Shown in pieces: positions 21,764 to 48,096 of a DNA stretch of 64,000 bases. Both the position numbers and the translations under genes were made by a program. How positions within the stretch are numbered: position 1 is the stretch's first letter; each line of letters begins with the position of its first letter. The DNA is from a bacterium. Its GTDB lineage: Bacteria; Patescibacteriota; Minisyncoccia; Phycocordibacterales; Zambryskibacteraceae. The notes under the pieces are model-generated. The model worked only from the letters and a program-made list of their open reading frames with translations, was not told the origin of the DNA and ran no database searches. The stretch is taken from NCBI GenBank assembly GCA_023266935.1, contig JAHFOF010000002.1, forward strand, positions 68,623-132,622. The letters run 5' to 3'.

Positions 21764-22355
21764 CTACTTCCCCTGCTTTCCTCTCTATTAAATCTGCTCT
21801 GCGTAAATTCTTTATTTGTTTGTTTGAGATAATCTTTATATGGGGAGATTTGTCCAACATTTCTACTAATTTAAACAAATCTTTTTCTGAGTTTCTCCAA
21901 TCTATTTTGATTTTGGACAAATCGAAGGGTTTAGAATAACTCCTTAAGGTTTTTTCTCCATTGGATAAAAAATATTCGTGAAAATAAGATAGGGCCAGCT
22001 CACGGATGGTTTTATAAATCGGCTCTCTGTATCTTAGAACTGCATGGTTGGTTTTGGATATGGCTCCCCAGTATCCCTGCCTACCGGCAGGCAGGCATCT
22101 TTCTCTAAACAAAGTTACTACATGGTCCACATCTTTATCTTCTGTGGTTTTTAAATCAAGTAAAAGTGGTTTGTATCCTTGTTTTTCTAGAGCCAACGCT
22201 GCGATGAGTGCTCCTTCAAAACAATGCGCCCTATTAATTTTTAAAGCTTTAGTCGGAGACATATATGTCTCACCGTCTTTTTCAAAATTAAAAGGTATTT
22301 GATTTATAAAATCCTGAATCTTCTTTGGCGTATTAAGATTAGAAAGTTTAAACAC
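21708..22355 (-). CDS. Conserved hypothetical protein (transglutaminase-like Cys/His) with LPAGRQ insertion
   Basis: AHCFEGAL, DHVV, WGAISKTNH. Confidence 0.7.
   Translation of the reverse strand: MFKLSNLNTPKKIQDFINQIPFNFEKDGETYMSPTKALKINRAHCFEGALIAALALEKQGYKPLLLDLKTTEDKDVDHVVTLFRERCLPAGRQGYWGAISKTNHAVLRYREPIYKTIRELALSYFHEYFLSNGEKTLRSYSKPFDLSKIKIDWRNSEKDLFKLVEMLDKSPHIKIISNKQIKNLRRADLIERKAGEVVNELPSKSRSFESRRKRG
22076..22095. repeat. 20-bp palindrome (LPAGRQ element)
   Basis: cctgcctaccggcaggcagg. Confidence 0.85.
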
Positions 22356-31925: not shown

Positions 31926-32634
31926 GTTTTGTATGGTGAATTACTCTTTTTTGATGAGATTTTGAATCTTCAACCAATCGTCCATCTCGAATAAAAATTA
32001 TTCTGTCTGCGTGTTCAGCCACCTCATGTTCATGGGTGATAAGGATAATGGTTCGTCCAAAATCCCGATTAAGTTTTTGAAATGTCCCGAGCACAATTTC
32101 TCCAGTCTTTGTATCCAGATTTCCTGTTGGTTCATCGGCGAGAATAAGGGTTGGATTATTTACTAGCGCCCTAGCAATAGCCACACGTTGAATCTGTCCT
32201 CCAGAAAGTTGATTCGAAAGGTGAGAAAAATGTTCTTCTTCTAATCCTGCAGCAATCAAAGATTCTTCGGCTCGTTTTTCCCTCTCATGTTTACTCACAT
32301 CAGCATAGACTAGAGGCAACATCACATTGCGAAGGACTGTGGTTCGGGGCAAGAGATTAAACGACTGAAAAACAAATCCAATTTTATCTCTTCGGATATC
32401 AGCGAGCTCATCATCAGAAAGCTTCGAGACATCTTTATTGTCCAAAAAATATTCCCCTGAAGTTGGTGTGTCGAGGGCACCAAGAATATGCATCAAGGTA
32501 GATTTACCCGAACCAGACGGACCCATAATAGCCACAAACTCTCCGTTGTCTATTTTGAAGTTAACATCCTTGAGTGCTTCAAAGGGTGCGGGACCATTCG
32601 TATAAATTTTGCCTACATTTTTTACTTCAATCAT
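31915..32634 (-). CDS. ABC ATP-binding protein (MacB/LolD family)
   Basis: [24 protein letters not shown]. Confidence 0.95.
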   Translation of the reverse strand: MIEVKNVGKIYTNGPAPFEALKDVNFKIDNGEFVAIMGPSGSGKSTLMHILGALDTPTSGEYFLDNKDVSKLSDDELADIRRDKIGFVFQSFNLLPRTTVLRNVMLPLVYADVSKHEREKRAEESLIAAGLEEEHFSHLSNQLSGGQIQRVAIARALVNNPTLILADEPTGNLDTKTGEIVLGTFQKLNRDFGRTIILITHEHEVAEHADRIIFIRDGRLVEDSKSHQKRVIHHTKHDH

Positions 32635-35800: not shown

Positions 35801-36481
35801 TTAACTAAAATATTTGCCCTCCTTATCATCTCTAATAATCCTGCCTTTATCCATGGCTATCACTCTCTTGCCCAAGGAGTCTATCACCCCTTTGTTGTGA
35901 GTGGTCAGGATAACTGTTGTGCCCAAATCGTTTATTCTTTTTAAAATTTGCACGATATCATGAGTGTTCACTGGATCAAGGTTCCCCGTTGGTTCATCAG
36001 CGATGATGATGTCTGGGTTGTTCACAATCGCCCGGGCAATAGCCACGCGTTGTTTCTCTCCTCCAGAAAGTTCGTGGGGAAAATTCCAAACCTTGTCTGC
36101 TAATCCGACGAGGTCGAGGACGTGAGGCACATCGGCTTCTATCTCTTCGTCACTTCGACCTGCGGCCTCCATAGTGAAGGCGATGTTTTCATAAACCGTT
36201 CTGTCTGGGAGAAGACGAAAATCTTGAAAAATCATCCCTACTCGTTGACGAAATTTGTTTATATCTTGTTTGTGAAGAGAATGAACATCAATTGATTCAT
36301 AAAAAACCCGACCTTTCGTCGGTTTCTCTTCGGCTAGAAACATTTTAAGTAAAGTGGTCTTGCCTGCACCAGATTGACCGACGATAGAGACAAATTCTTT
36401 TGGTTCTATAGAGAAAGTAACATCCTCGAGAGCAACGGAAGAATCCGGATATACCTTGGAGACTTTATCAAAGAAAATCAT
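35801..36481 (-). CDS. ftsE: Cell division ATP-binding protein FtsE
   Basis: [24 protein letters not shown]. Confidence 0.92.
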
Positions 36482-37340: not shown

Positions 37341-38243
37341 TTATAGCTCTTTTTCAGCCTCTATAAATTCATCCAAATCACCATTTAGGACTTTTTCTAT
37401 TTGAGAAGTTTCAACGTTGGTTCGGTGGTCTTTGACCATTTTGTATGGATGCAGAACGTACGAACGGATTTGGTTTCCCCATTCAATCTGCGTTGTTTTA
37501 GAAATATACATCCCCTTTTCTTTCGCCTTCCTCTCTTCGTCTCGAAGTTTATAAAGTTTGGCCGAAAGCATCATGAGAGCTTTCTCTTTATTCTGCGCTT
37601 GACTGCGTTCTGTCTCTACATGCACGGCGAGGTTCGTGGGGATGTGGACCACACGCACGGCTGTCTCTCGTTTGTTCACATTTTGTCCACCCGGACCAGA
37701 TGATTTAGAAGTCTCAACTCGAATTTCTTCTGGAGGAATCTTTAGTTCATCTGGTGTTTCAAATTCGGGTATCACTTCAACCATAGAGAAAGATGTGTGT
37801 CGCAAATCCTTGGCACTAAATGGAGAGATACGCACGAGTCGATGCACGCCGGATTCATTCTTCAATGTCCCGTATGGACCTTTTGCCTCCTGCCTGCCGG
37901 CAGGCAGGTCAATCTCAATCGTGATGTTTCTGTATCCACCATGGTCATTCGTATTTTTGTGCAGAGTTTTAAAACTCCAACCTTTCTTCTCTATATATTT
38001 CATATACATTTCTAAAAGTATCCTAGAGAAATCTTCAGCGTCATCTCCACCAGCTCCAGAAAATATAGTCATCACTGCACTGCCCTTGTCATACTTTCCT
38101 CCTCCTTCCTTTTCATCTTTTAAATTTTGAATTTCTCGAATAATCGCTTGGGCCTTATCTTTGTCCAACCAAAAATCCGCCGAGCTCATCTCCGCTTCTA
38201 GTTCCTGAATTTTCTTATCTATTTCATTATTTGAAATTGTCAT
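37341..38243 (-). CDS. prfB: Peptide chain release factor 2 (short form) with LPAGRQ insertion
   Basis: SPF tripeptide (RISPF), GPGGQNVNK, WGNQIRSY. Confidence 0.93.
   Translation of the reverse strand: MTISNNEIDKKIQELEAEMSSADFWLDKDKAQAIIREIQNLKDEKEGGGKYDKGSAVMTIFSGAGGDDAEDFSRILLEMYMKYIEKKGWSFKTLHKNTNDHGGYRNITIEIDLPAGRQEAKGPYGTLKNESGVHRLVRISPFSAKDLRHTSFSMVEVIPEFETPDELKIPPEEIRVETSKSSGPGGQNVNKRETAVRVVHIPTNLAVHVETERSQAQNKEKALMMLSAKLYKLRDEERKAKEKGMYISKTTQIEWGNQIRSYVLHPYKMVKDHRTNVETSQIEKVLNGDLDEFIEAEKEL
37889..37908. repeat. 20-bp perfect palindrome (LPAGRQ element)
   Basis: cctgcctgccggcaggcagg. Confidence 0.9.
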
Positions 38244-39297: not shown

Positions 39298-39370
39298 ACG
39301 AATAAACGTCTCCGAATAATAATACATCAAATAAGCTTTATCAATTAAGCTTTAATTAGAGATCTAAGTG

Positions 39371-39441
39371 TTGCGGGTATCCGATTTGCACGGATGCCTA
39401 CAGGTTATGAGCCTGTCGAGGTACTGCTCCTCCAACCCGCT
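39371..39441 (-). tRNA. Atypical tRNA(CAT), initiator-like
   Basis: acagg-ctCATaa-cctgt; unpaired A1:A72; A11:U24; T-loop TGCAAAT. Confidence 0.75.
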
Positions 39442-39505
39442 ATTCTTCATATTATACGTCTTTATATTCCCAAAAGCAAGATTTAATATTATAGTGTTGT
39501 TTATT

Positions 39506-39577
39506 GCCGGTGTAGTTCAATGGTTAGAACGAAGGACTCATAAGCCTTAGACGGTGGTTCGATTCCACCCATCGGCA
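39506..39577 (+). tRNA. tRNA(CAT), elongator Met or Ile2
   Basis: gccggtg...catcggc acceptor; ctCATaa loop; TTCGATT. Confidence 0.88.
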
Positions 39578-39627
39578 CAAATTGATAAAGAACCAAAAAT
39601 CTGCTACTTTGTATCGGTAAGAAACAT

Positions 39628-39690
39628 TTGCGGCTGTACCCGCCCGAACGTGCCGAAGCACCTTCGGTACGGGCGGGGCTCAACGGTAGA
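39628..39690 (+). repeat. Duplicated 5' end of tRNA-Asp interrupted by a 39-bp palindrome (39639-39677)
   Basis: ttgcggctgta[cccgcccgaacgtgccgaagcaccttcggtacgggcggg]gctcaacggtaga. Confidence 0.9.
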
Positions 39691-39695
39691 TCAAT

Positions 39696-39935
39696 ATGCA
39701 CATTGTATACGTTTTACAAGACGAAAAGGGTAAGTTTTACAAAGGACTTACAAATAACCTTGCAAGACGTTTCAGTGAACATAAAAGAGGAGAAACAATT
39801 ACAACTTCAAAAATGAGTGGGTTGAAAATTGTTTATACTGAAGAATATGACTCCTTCGAAAAAGCCCGAGCAAGAGAAGTGTACCTAAAAACTGCTGCGG
39901 GACGAAGGTTTCTGAAAAATAAATTGCGGCTGTAG
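39696..39935 (+). CDS. Stand-alone GIY-YIG nuclease
   Basis: VYVL...FYKGLTNNLARRFSEH...AREVYLK; stop codon lies inside tRNA-Asp. Confidence 0.9.
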   Translation: MHIVYVLQDEKGKFYKGLTNNLARRFSEHKRGETITTSKMSGLKIVYTEEYDSFEKARAREVYLKTAAGRRFLKNKLRL

Positions 39936-40000
39936 CTCAACGGTAGAGCACTCCCCTGTCACGGGAGAGGCCGTGGGGTCAGCACCCATCAGCCGCGCCA
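39926..40000 (+). tRNA. tRNA-Asp(GTC)
   Basis: gcggctg...cagccgc-g-cca; ctccc-ctGTCac-gggag; non-canonical T-loop GTCAGCA. Confidence 0.9.
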
Positions 40001-40004
40001 AACC

Positions 40005-40170
40005 AAAAAGTCCAGATTTATTCTGGTCTTTTTTATACCTTTGCCGAGCTGAAGAAATGTTTAAATGACATTTCGTTGGGTGCTGAGGGCGCAGGCCGAC
40101 GGGCCGAGCCGGGGTCGCGCAAATCCCGACCACGGGATTATGTGTGATCAGACCACCCATCATCCGCGCA
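40005..40170 (+). repeat. Structured repeat R, copy 1
   Basis: Differs from 40848-41012 by 3 substitutions and 1 indel; ends in a copy of the tRNA-Asp 3' end. Confidence 0.95.
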
Positions 40171-40244
40171 TCTGAAAAGACCCTTAGAAATACGGGTCTT
40201 TTTCTGTAGAGAAATGAGACGTTAGAAATGATACACTCAATTAT

Positions 40245-40814
40245 ATGGAAAAAGTACCAGGACAATATGAAACCGAAGGTTTTATACCATTTGAACAATC
40301 CCTTCAAATGGCTCGAAAACTCATGGAAGATCATGAAGACGAATTGATAAATATCCGCGCTGCACTTCCCGAAGAAGATCGAGAGGCAATTAGATTTAAT
40401 GGAAGTTCCATTGAACACCACTTGAATAAGTTTCCTAAAGAAACACTAAAAAGATTTTGGGGACATGGAATTTTCAGAGGCGACGCAGAAAAAAATCTTG
40501 CGGCGCTGATTAATGTTATCCAAAATAAAAGTATAAAAGGTTCTATTGCCACCCTTGTTGATAGTGGTTATTATGATGCCGCAAAGGATGGCGATTTTTT
40601 AGTTCTTTCACACGCAGACACCACGCTCGCTGTGTTGAATGAAAACGGCAAACCTATCTTTAATGAAATCGGTTTAGTTATTAACGCTGGAGCCTATGTG
40701 GTAAATGCGAAGCTTTATCCAATAATTGATGATTTGAAGGTTCTTTTTCCTGATGCAAATATTCTCATGGCAAATGAAGTTCCTGAGTATGTGAATAGTG
40801 AAACTGGAGTTTAG
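40245..40814 (+). CDS. Hypothetical protein (array gene 1)
   Basis: 189-aa ORF between R1 and end motif E1. Confidence 0.7.
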   Translation: MEKVPGQYETEGFIPFEQSLQMARKLMEDHEDELINIRAALPEEDREAIRFNGSSIEHHLNKFPKETLKRFWGHGIFRGDAEKNLAALINVIQNKSIKGSIATLVDSGYYDAAKDGDFLVLSHADTTLAVLNENGKPIFNEIGLVINAGAYVVNAKLYPIIDDLKVLFPDANILMANEVPEYVNSETGV

Positions 40815-40841
40815 TTCTCACTTCATACACTAGCCCGCGCT
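40813..40841 (+). repeat. End motif E, copy 1
   Basis: agttctcacttcatacactagcccgcgct. Confidence 0.85.
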
Positions 40842-40847
40842 AGGTTA

Positions 40848-41012
40848 AAAAAGTCCAGATTTATTCTGGTTTTTTTATACCTTTGCCGAGCTGAAGAAAT
40901 GTCTAAACGACATTTCGTTGGGTGCTGAGGGCGCAGGCCGACGGGCCGAGCCGGGGTCGCGCAAATCCCGACCACGGGATTATGTGTGATCAGACCACCC
41001 ATCAGCCGCGCA
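40848..41012 (+). repeat. Structured repeat R, copy 2
   Basis: Near-identical to copy 1; ends cacccatcagccgcgca. Confidence 0.95.
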
Positions 41013-41033
41013 AAACTTGGTATAATTCAAAGA

Positions 41034-41735
41034 ATGATACCTCTGAAGTTTGTTTATCTCGTCGGTCTTGTTCCCATAGGAATTGCATGGCTCGTTCTTT
41101 ATTTTCAGCGCAGTGATTTAAGAAAGGAAATGCTCTGGATGAGTTCTCTGATGGCATTCGGAAGCTTTGTCACTTCGTATTACTTTTGGACAAAAGATTG
41201 GTGGAGGCCGTTAACGATAACTGGTACTAGAGTTGGTATTGAGGATATTCTGCTCGGGTTTGCTATTGGTGGAATTGAGGCGGTTATATATGAGGTGGTA
41301 TTTAAAAAGAAATATTATAAAAGAAAACTTCATCCTCATAATTTTTTGTTGCCGCTTCTGCTCTTAATCCAGCTTATTACTTTTTTATTCTGGGGTGTAG
41401 GGCTAACATCTTTTTGGTCCTGTGTATTGTCCTTAATTTTGGTTTCTACGGGTGTATTTATTATAAGAAGAGATTTGTTAATGAACGGAATCTTATCTGG
41501 AATACTAACTATGTTAATTGCCATGTTAGATTACTACTTCATCATGCTCATTTCTCCCCAATGGATAGATCACACTTATCTTTCATCTTTAAGTGGCGTT
41601 AGAATAACGGGAATACCAATAGAAGAACTAATATTCTGGTTTTTGGCTGGATTGCTGTTTGGCCCTTTATATGAATACTGGCAGGGTAAAAGATTGGTTG
41701 GCATTAAGAAATCCAGTTCCAACTTCATACACTAG
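41034..41735 (+). CDS. Lycopene-cyclase-domain-like membrane protein (array gene 2)
   Basis: Two repeats VGIEDILLGF / GIPIEELIFWF; multi-TM. Confidence 0.7.
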   Translation: MIPLKFVYLVGLVPIGIAWLVLYFQRSDLRKEMLWMSSLMAFGSFVTSYYFWTKDWWRPLTITGTRVGIEDILLGFAIGGIEAVIYEVVFKKKYYKRKLHPHNFLLPLLLLIQLITFLFWGVGLTSFWSCVLSLILVSTGVFIIRRDLLMNGILSGILTMLIAMLDYYFIMLISPQWIDHTYLSSLSGVRITGIPIEELIFWFLAGLLFGPLYEYWQGKRLVGIKKSSSNFIH

Positions 41736-41743
41736 CCCGCGCT
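41715..41743 (+). repeat. End motif E, copy 2
   Basis: agttccaacttcatacactagcccgcgct; its TAG is the ORF stop. Confidence 0.85.
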
Positions 41744-41804
41744 TCCATAATTTAAAACAGAAAAGCCCCACGCAGGTAAGCTATGAGGCTTCTCTGCTTG
41801 GGGC

Positions 41805-42005
41805 TCAAACCGATCGACCAACTGATGCAACTTCGAGCTTCCAGGTGTGTTTCTTGTCTGGAACGAACATATGACTCACGTGTGCACCTCCAGCAAGAGC
41901 AACCGTCCGAACAAGCCAGCCACCAGGAACCTTCAAGCGATGCGAGAAGGACCTGGAATCCTGGAAGTTTTGGACATCGTCCATCACTTGAATCCTTTCC
42001 CACAT
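41805..42005 (-). CDS. Small hypothetical protein (array gene 3)
   Basis: AAGGAG RBS; promoter TTGACT-17-TATCAT at 42052-42080; RLKVPGGWLV. Confidence 0.65.
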   Translation of the reverse strand: MWERIQVMDDVQNFQDSRSFSHRLKVPGGWLVRTVALAGGAHVSHMFVPDKKHTWKLEVASVGRSV

Positions 42006-42105
42006 AGAGGCTCCTTTTGTCTGAAGTTGTAGTTGAGAACTGACTTTTTATATGATATCACACAATTATTATATAGTCAAGCGTATTGCTAAATCTTTAA
42101 CCTAA

Positions 42106-42157
42106 TTCCAACCTCATACACCCTCGGCCATAGTCTATAGACGAGGCTGACCCGCGC
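42106..42157 (+). repeat. End motif E, degenerate copy 3 with 26-bp hairpin insertion
   Basis: ttccaacctcataca[ccctcggccatagtctatagacgagg]ctgacccgcgc. Confidence 0.7.
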
Positions 42158-47511: not shown

Positions 47512-48096
47512 CTAGTTGTCTATTAATCTTTGGGAGGCCATGGATTCCAAGGTAAAACTCGTTCGGGTATTAGATTTGGTTCCAGCATCTCCACTAATCT
47601 TGATCAAAGCCTTCGGTTGTAGTGTGTCAGCTGGATAAGAATTCGCCCCGATAACATAAAATGTGAGGCTACTGATATTTATTTCTGGTGCAGTGACTGC
47701 CACATAAGTATTTCCTCCGTCCACTGATTTTTCCATAGATGAACCGTTTAATCTATATACAGTTTGCACTCCTTCACTCGACAGGAAACTAATGAAAGAA
47801 TCTCCAAGTGAACAATTTTGAGGAAGAGACAAAGAACCAGTAGAACCACAATGGTAGTTTCTACCAAAACGAATTTCTCTGGTCATCGTTTCCACAGCAA
47901 AGTTTAGATTATCCATCACAGTCTTCGCTGATTCGGCTTTTTTATTCGCATCAAAGATTCCCAGAAGCGCGCCCATACTAATCATCATCACCACCATAAA
48001 AACCGTGAGGGAAGTCATCATTTCAATAAGAGTAAATCCCTGCCTGCCGGCAGGCAGGCTTTTTTCATTCTTTGGTTTTAAAAATTTTATTTTCAT
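47512..48096 (-). CDS. Minor pilin with LPAGRQ insertion in leader peptide
   Basis: SLPAGRQ-GFTLIEMM. Confidence 0.85.
   Translation of the reverse strand: MKIKFLKPKNEKSLPAGRQGFTLIEMMTSLTVFMVVMMISMGALLGIFDANKKAESAKTVMDNLNFAVETMTREIRFGRNYHCGSTGSLSLPQNCSLGDSFISFLSSEGVQTVYRLNGSSMEKSVDGGNTYVAVTAPEINISSLTFYVIGANSYPADTLQPKALIKISGDAGTKSNTRTSFTLESMASQRLIDN
48039..48058. repeat. 20-bp perfect palindrome (LPAGRQ element)
   Basis: cctgcctgccggcaggcagg. Confidence 0.9.

Follow-up and report, generated by a model that had tools for sequence, protein, structure and literature searches.

The window analysed here is a stretch of 64,000 nt from a bacterium of the Patescibacteriota (assembly GCA_023266935.1, contig JAHFOF010000002.1, positions 68,623 to 132,622 of the forward strand). 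In this window, a gene-less, tightly folded element of about 170 bases, here named R, is located 3′ of a tRNA-Asp gene, and it is present in two copies that are 98% alike. The element is composed of a copy of the end of its target, a hairpin, an antisense arm, a fixed two-hairpin core and a junction, in this order. The features of the locus are as follows (a slash marks the junction in the intact site).

39630-39935, + strand: GIY-YIG nuclease cassette, separate from R; the gene follows a copy of the tRNA-Asp 5′ end that is split by a hairpin
39926-40000, + strand: tRNA-Asp(GTC), the target gene (ARAGORN and Rfam)
39977-39980, + strand: intact site in tRNA-Asp, G39977-G-T/C39980 (register from site-rule scoring)
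40005-40170, + strand: R1, the first copy of R (base-by-base check)
40005-40033, + strand: terminator-like spacer hairpin of R1, with an A-run and a T-run (terminator score on both strands)
40043-40087, + strand: antisense arm of R1 (acceptor-side part 40043-40052, looped-out 8-bp hairpin 40054-40074, T-arm part 40077-40086)
40088-40148, + strand: conserved core of R1 (covariation; covariance model, 77.7 bits, R1 itself being in the training alignment of the model)
40149-40170, + strand: displaced tRNA-Asp 3′ end, a copy that runs from T-loop position 56
40245-40814, + strand: cargo ORF1 of 189 aa, outside all Pfam and NCBIfam families, with one relative (50% identical)
40813-40840, + strand: attR-like end of a mini-island of the serine-recombinase type (RGLVYEVRT on the minus strand)
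40848-41012, + strand: R2, the second copy of the whole of R, downstream of the attR-like end (repeat comparison, covariance model)
41034-41735, + strand: cargo ORF2, which encodes a membrane protein whose domain is of the lycopene-cyclase type (PF18916); its longest frame starts at 40986
41715-41742, + strand: another attR-like island end, the second (RGLVYEVGT on the minus strand)
42104-42157, + strand: presumed third attR-like end, degenerate and broken by a small hairpin (RVYEVGI on the minus strand)

The arm of R1 was verified base by base. As claimed in the preliminary description, gctga (40048-40052) and tgggtgctga (40077-40086) together are the exact reverse complement of a 15-nt sequence, TCAGCACCCATCAGC, that is present in tRNA-Asp, and they are split by 24 nt (40053-40076) consisting of an A, an 8-bp hairpin (GAAATGTT paired with GACATTTC, loop TAAAT) and GT. 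The last pair of this looped-out hairpin is T-G in R1 (T at 40061) and C-G in R2, also as described, and the opening hairpin scored as terminator-like on both strands. A contiguous antisense match of 10 nt was obtained by chance in 9 of 5000 mononucleotide shuffles. The 3′ end quoted for R, ...cacccatcagc, was found in the second copy; the first reads ...cacccatcatc (G>T at 40163). Over 40029-40170, the two copies differ only at 40061, 40066 and 40163.

The core of R1 contains, in order, a GGC/GCC stem, a GCA/GA internal loop, a GACG hairpin, a GG linker and a long hairpin with an ACCA loop and a bulged A, and it ends in GTGAT (GTGAC in the family). The 3′ end of the R1 arm is one base shorter than that of its relatives (ctg-AG vs ctg-AC-A/G), and the displaced tRNA-Asp end carries one substitution and a 2-nt insertion. 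Judging by the shortened arm end and this insertion, R1 and R2 may be slightly decayed. In the best-matching read run, which may be the source of the window itself and hence not independent of it, the assembly depth of the repeat piece was 16.9, compared with 9.9 and 6.5 for the unique flanks; the repeat depth is about the sum of the two flank depths, so the two copies of R are no assembly artefact. The covariance model matched R1 and R2 only in the host genome (544 kb, 94% complete).

The element family and its covarying fold

The exact 28-letter pattern of the core was found at 113 places in the genome collection, and a covariance model made from 44 cores revealed the element in 65 of the 71 genomes of the host's family (a tally that takes in the host genome and one unpublished genome), with 0-28 copies per genome and a median of 4. 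The homologous scaffold that the preliminary description had proposed to look for is thus present in other genomes. Among the 80 pattern matches listed, the named titles belonged to the Patescibacteria group, except for one Woesearchaeota and one WS2. Across the phylum, at least 4 of 121 genomes carried the element, the host included, which is a lower bound as 44 candidates were scored per genome; BLAST matches were obtained in 79 of 301 genomes of the order, but as weak matches beyond the core are counted in, this tally was set aside as a measure of prevalence. The viral contigs were free of both the core pattern and the pattern of the island ends. When the window was compared with Rfam 15, only tRNAs were obtained, and for the core nothing reached the gathering threshold (best non-tRNA match 20 bits vs 47, E 3.8). 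The family belongs to Paceibacteria-type CPR bacteria; it is frequent in one large CPR order, lies outside Rfam, and is a source of spurious short ORFs in annotation.

The interior hairpins proposed earlier (GGCC-GACG-GGCC, AATCCCG-ACCA-CGGGATT and a stem with three G-U pairs) were all recovered in the predicted fold. The RNA folding z-scores were -3.45 (copy 1) and -6.15 (copy 2) on the + strand and -0.82 and -3.58 on the - strand; those for DNA folding were -3.33 and -6.82 on the + strand and -1.90 and -4.50 on the - strand. Strong covariation of the scaffold was observed. At one pair, the 5′ base of which the search pattern did not constrain, Watson-Crick pairing was found in all 113 loci (AT 43, GC 36, CG 34; null maximum 59). 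In the 44-row alignment of cores, 97.7% of the cells were paired and 15 pairs were altered on both sides, a pairing level matched by 0 of 500 shuffles; slid controls were paired at 32-44%, a comparison in which the consensus structure has an advantage, being drawn from the same 44 sequences. At one stem position, where the 3′ base was free in the search pattern, G-T was observed 27 times and A-C once, which indicates that the + strand is the functional strand and supports the single-stranded function that had been suggested for it. Certain irregularities of the fold were fixed, namely a G-S-A/G-A internal loop, a G-N-C-G loop, a G-T pair, a bulged A and an A-N-Y-A loop (AGCA in 51 of 88 cores). 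The invariant bulged A and G-T pair suggest that a protein would recognise the core. Templated repair of DNA palindromes can imitate hairpin covariation; such repair would tend to wipe out the fixed irregularities of the core. On the strand of the element, 39 of 59 loci showed a positive GC skew, which is uninformative.

Of the 113 loci, 72 were located 3′ of a same-strand tRNA or tmRNA, 10 were 5′ of one, and 31 were near neither; the loci away from tRNAs include one at the end of rplL and others beside duplicated 5′ fragments of genes. The nearest tRNA, where within 200 nt, was on the same strand as the core in 80 of 81 cases, compared with 19 of 30 for more distant tRNAs. A terminator-like site was found between the tRNA and the core in R and in 35 of 89 elements; with 42 of 157 for comparison tRNAs without an element, the excess in element loci is modest. 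No promoter-like site was found between the tRNA and the core in the window.

This arrangement bears on the possibility that the element works as RNA, which would be freed from a tRNA or mRNA trailer and would act as a guide plus scaffold, much as a bridge RNA does, or as the template with which a reverse transcriptase inserts it. The strand shared with the nearest tRNA is in keeping with this, as are the RNA-like G-U pairs, the G-A-rich internal loop, the A-N-Y-A tetraloops and the two reverse transcriptases of the host genome. However, the strand bias follows equally from an oriented DNA target, the terminator-like site lies ahead of the arm with no promoter-like site behind the tRNA, the core has no Rfam match, neither reverse transcriptase locus has a core nearby, and IS110 recombinases are encoded in only 2 of the 71 family genomes (none in the host genome), as against 65 with the core. 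Overall, we regard a working RNA as unlikely. The contigs of the single RNA run are uninformative here, with none on R and none with the typical core, compared with 18 and 25 for that core in two DNA runs.

Several variants of the element were also observed. At several loci of a mirror class, a fixed hairpin and core lie beside a duplicated 5′ fragment of a tRNA or protein gene; the protein gene is presumably uppP-like, from its N-terminus, and the two copies in this pair differ at synonymous sites. A 14-nt insert with GTACTC, which breaks the displaced copy two bases past the junction, recurs in 7 loci. In a variant core (3 loci), the GACG hairpin is kept while the second hairpin and the flanks are different, and these loci are apparently at terminator-like sites and not at tRNA ends.

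Matching of the arm to its target

The arm was scored against the tRNA next to it in 66 of the 72 tRNA-trailing elements, the other six being without a readable core end. The mean antisense score for the element's own tRNA was 9.6, compared with a mean of 6.4 and a maximum of 7.2 in 500 shuffles, so that the antisense segment tracks the neighbouring tRNA as had been supposed. An exact copy of at least 10 nt was found 3′ of the core in 29 of the 66 elements (mean expectation 1.1), and the displaced copy starts at tRNA position 56. The own tRNA was the top one of 60 candidates in only 28 of 66 elements, which indicates that many arms are short or decayed. Almost no compensatory change was shared between the arm and the displaced copy, and the arm preferred the tRNA over the displaced copy by 18:1, a ratio that is partly trivial, as each of the two can decay on its own. 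At first a perfect arm seemed to be traded off against a perfect displaced copy, but the effect was gone when alignment scores were used (rho 0.07, n = 67), and the idea was discarded.

To define the register of the arm, 161 distinct elements were collected, of which 70 were scorable, their arm pairing with 4 nt or more of the right-hand copy and their intact site being uniquely located upstream. The remaining 91 were left unscored; the scored set is 43% of the elements found, and kin within it are not independent. The arm matched site position -1 in 70 of 70 elements, position -2 in 68 and position -3 in none, and thus in 68 of 70 it reached exactly 2 nt past the junction, in the form G-N-N/target. 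When the dinucleotide was other than TT, 25 of 26 were matched (shuffle mean 4.9, maximum 12), over eight dinucleotide types (CG, GT, CA, TG, TC, GA, GG and AG). Position -3 was G in 68 of 70 sites, which is trivial in T-loops; away from T-loops it was again G in 18 of the 19 sites listed. Where the arm overruns, the right junction of the element itself reads AC, so the two extra arm bases are unpairable there and the arm is complementary to the uncut site, beyond R's own end. The GTGAC end of the junction is partly imposed by the search patterns. Overall, R is a genuine and widespread insertion element without genes, apparently not yet described in print, whose arm matches the target and whose sites follow a precise rule. 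The target-programmed guide named in the preliminary description holds good in its anatomy, the arm spanning the intact site across the junction; the working molecule may be DNA or RNA.

Among 15 related tRNA-Asp loci, the element was directly 3′ of the gene in 6 and absent in 9 (one more locus was left unplaced). Six tRNA-Asp relatives have the looped-out hairpin at the same register, one of them with other bases in the paired part; three other loci lack it. In one relative, two substitutions in the tRNA were mirrored by the arm. At another locus, the displaced end was of another tRNA-Asp type than the host gene, which indicates that the whole unit had moved there. Tandem G-A pairs opposite positions 57/58 were observed in 13 of 67 T-loop elements, with four tRNA types.

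Since the arm matches its own target and overruns the junction by exactly two bases, the element likely inserts by base-pairing as folded single-stranded DNA, and we give an even chance to the full reading of R as a non-autonomous, guide-armed insertion element that acts in this form. The covarying fold favours a single + strand, and the terminator-like site before the arm in R and in the 35 elements mentioned above favours action at the DNA level. The intermediate would be a circular or looped single-stranded form of the element, the arm of which would pair across the intact G-N1-N2/target. A core-bound protein, presumably provided in trans, would then swap one strand between the N2/target bond and the GTGAC end of the element, by which the tRNA gene would be restored with the element-borne end and the old end would stay on the right.

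The 2-nt overrun would be expected just as much if the arm had been copied by fold-back from a cut with a 2-nt stagger. The arm would then be a scar: after such a cut at G-N-N/, the end would fold back at the terminator hairpin and be copied to the cut, and the core would be joined in, so that only the 62-nt core would be mobile and each arm would be built locally at its insertion. The target end, the spacer and the arm are often one unbroken inverted repeat centred on the spacer loop, and right-hand copies are sometimes just 4-7 nt, both in line with a scar. The cores also track the host genome, with a mean identity of 0.91 in 9 same-genome pairs against 0.81 +/- 0.07 for all pairs; same-tRNA pairs are no closer (0.80 vs 0.79, p = 0.14), and hairpin 1 groups by genome in four high-copy genomes (0.47 vs 0.35, p = 0.023), although such clustering was not significant for the whole core (p = 0.13) or hairpin 2 (p = 0.47). 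Against local copying stand the looped-out hairpin, which recurs in register in the six relatives and the window and would not be given by a plain copy, the tandem G-A pairs, and the locus at which the whole unit had moved. For these reasons we find a scar rather unlikely; were the arm one, it would still be the record of an unexplained rebuilding of tRNA-gene ends in streamlined CPR genomes.

If, instead, the arm is the guide of a folded single-stranded element, R would be a very compact programmable insertion element with a sequence requirement of one base. A broader form of this guide-armed reading is a reprogrammable insertion system of CPR bacteria, in which the 62-nt core with a free arm would enter any G-N-N/ site by means of a host or trans enzyme of a class new to mobile DNA, with many retargetings; the targets in this case comprise at least 15 tRNA types, tmRNA and protein genes. 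We put this forward tentatively, as a possible but doubtful extension.

Search for an enzyme, and comparison with known systems

Genes for candidate enzymes were located and the cores around them were searched for. None of 20 Y1/RAYT-like, 29 serine-recombinase, 1 Xer-like, 2 reverse transcriptase and 29 GIY-YIG loci had a core within about 1.5 kb. The copy number of the element was hardly related to gene counts over 70 genomes (rho 0.11 for Y1, 0.07 for serine recombinases, 0.06 for GIY-YIG); among the 31 genomes with at least 6 copies, 13 were without a serine recombinase and 4 were without both Y1 and serine recombinase, and no Y1 gene was found in the host genome. When 595 ORFs around the 113 loci were clustered (33 of the loci with flanks of only 300 nt), syntenic housekeeping genes and element-derived frames were obtained, and no recombinase cluster. 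Likewise, 42 flanking ORFs from four high-copy genomes gave housekeeping families or nothing in Pfam, and no recombinase. By tblastn, GIY-YIG was near the element at 1 of 113 loci, and an Slx1-like GIY-YIG nick 2 nt into a stem was without support here. An excision joint at R was not seen in the run contigs, which is evidence in neither direction.

The cargo ORFs of the window are best read, from their sequence context, as mini-islands of a serine-recombinase system. The 28-nt motif at 40813 and 41715 was found in 8 of 401 genomes of the order, mostly right after an ORF (one match lies inside a gene and one is of doubtful kind). Large serine recombinases were encoded in 37 of the 71 host-family genomes and none was found in the host genome; in 14 of 29 loci, their frames terminate within the end of an antisense tRNA. 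One relative has a serine recombinase of 549 aa that reads into tRNA-Asp, and an island of about 14 kb there ends at the 28-nt motif. According to PMC4383910 (Islander, 2014), serine integrases were then without known tRNA-gene targets. These mini-islands are best read as entering at the terminal CGCGC, unlike R, whose junction lies in the T-loop. R2 was probably pushed downstream by a mini-island or brought in with one; R would thus ride on, or be displaced by, mini-islands, and this probably explains why R2 lies behind an island end and away from the tRNA. Directly after CCGCGC, the two copies have six different bases, and the island may accordingly have come before or after R. As for the GIY-YIG cassette, similar ones were observed 5′ of tRNA-Lys and tRNA-Ser elsewhere in the host genome, and GIY-YIG genes were found in 69 of 71 host-family genomes.

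The position of R inside an island array, and the recombinase genes that enter tRNA ends, could mean that R is an attachment-site remnant of the serine-recombinase islands. The junctions are different, however (T-loop 55/56 vs terminal CGCGC), there is no core near the 29 recombinase genes, and the 13 high-copy genomes named above lack a serine recombinase. A host signal for tRNA processing or termination is contradicted by a copy number of 0-28, which is too variable. We consider that R is most improbably either of these.

The single-ORF array and the folded single strand with extra-helical bases also recall integrons, in which case R would be an attC site and the ORFs would be integron cassettes; GTTGGGT at 40075-40081 fits GTTRRRY. 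In relatives, this GTT is not conserved (GGT, GTC, TAT or GAT) and has no AAC partner, and the family junction in the site-rule alignment is GTGAC followed by a variable target, with no attC core. The cassette ends derive from serine-recombinase islands. The sole tyrosine recombinase of the host genome scored 122.9 against an IntI cut-off of 265 and passed the XerA-type model, and IntI matches were obtained in 0 of 41 host-family genomes, in a search of which the positive control also gave no signal. An integron origin is thus very hard to credit. The attC-like hairpin of the preliminary description stands as an analogy, for its fold and extra-helical bases, and falls as a membership, for the missing RYYYAAC and GTTRRRY core and integron integrase. 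A folded attP of the CTX type is a further folded single-strand attachment site. Integron attC sites are defined by the conserved RYYYAAC and GTTRRRY core (PMC5027507), and the likeness of the R family to it extends to strand asymmetry and to arrays with chimeric junctions; unlike attC, the R family has a branched core and a long complementary arm that sets the target.

PATE-type miniature derivatives are grouped with IS200/IS605 ends (HUH Y1 enzymes). According to PMC8266576, guides located 5′ of a palindrome select the cleavage sites in IS200/IS605. R resembles IS200/IS605, PATE-type and REP/TnpA-REP sequences in being a gene-less strand-specific hairpin with a conserved bulge and a 5′ sequence complementary to the junction. 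The R-family anatomy fits such junction-guide complementarity in 68 of 70 elements, and a fold-back copy gives the same pattern. The R-family guide is variable, 6-20 nt long and mostly 3′ of the junction, whereas the IS200/IS605 guide is a fixed tetranucleotide; a gene-restoring fragment is carried, unlike in IS200/IS605, and no Y1 gene is adjacent or correlated. REP sequences are palindromes of 20-50 nt after a GTAG-type tetranucleotide, whereas the R core is a 62-nt two-hairpin unit after one purine and a variable arm.

According to PMC4383910, islands restore tRNAs, leave a displaced fragment and use a T-loop subsite. The R family shares with them the restored tRNA, the same-orientation displaced fragment, the T-loop subsite, the 3′ and 5′ fragment types and the tandem stacking. 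It differs in its size (about 150 nt), in having no ORF or integrase aboard, in its antisense arm and covarying core, and in also targeting tRNA 3′ tips and rplL under one G-N-N/ rule. R therefore resembles IS200/IS605, the tRNA-restoring islands and attC, yet departs from each in a defining property.

In IS110 bridge-RNA systems, a DEDD recombinase gene accompanies the RNA, and the target and donor loops are separate. As in IS110/IS1111 bridge or seek RNAs, the scaffold of the R family is fixed, and the target-matching segment, which spans the junction, is variable; the R family differs in having no recombinase adjacent and one contiguous arm, in the rarity of IS110 genes in the host's family given above, and in being known from DNA alone. 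The survey of noncoding clusters in bioRxiv 10.64898/2026.10.21.760802 mentions IS110-type guide RNAs only in passing, and its supplements might list the element; its Patescibacteria cluster was rejected as the same element, being a period-7 array. The accessible part of PMC12884075 holds nothing specific to the element, and no paper describing it was found in a search that most of the subscription literature lies outside.

Other observations were made in and around the window. The T-loop of the tRNA-Asp (39978-39984) reads GTCAGCA instead of TTCRANY, and as this loop was found in relatives of at least three families, it is no sequencing error; nothing on it was found in the accessible literature on CPR T-loops. 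The block of tRNA-Met, tRNA-Met and tRNA-Asp with its islands (39370-42157) appears inverted relative to several relatives, and where the arrangement is opposite, the islands lie between tRNA-Asp and a pair of tRNA-Thr genes; one relative seemingly has the orientation of the host genome. A tRNA-Ile with anticodon TAT, which is rare in bacteria, was identified by ARAGORN on another contig of the host genome (888-964) and likewise in several relatives. A 101-nt direct repeat (32110-32210 and 35972-36072, 77% alike) was found between two different ORFs. Lastly, a short GC-rich palindrome is present in three copies (22073-22103, 37886-37916 and 48036-48066), at least one of which is inside a gene (prfB).
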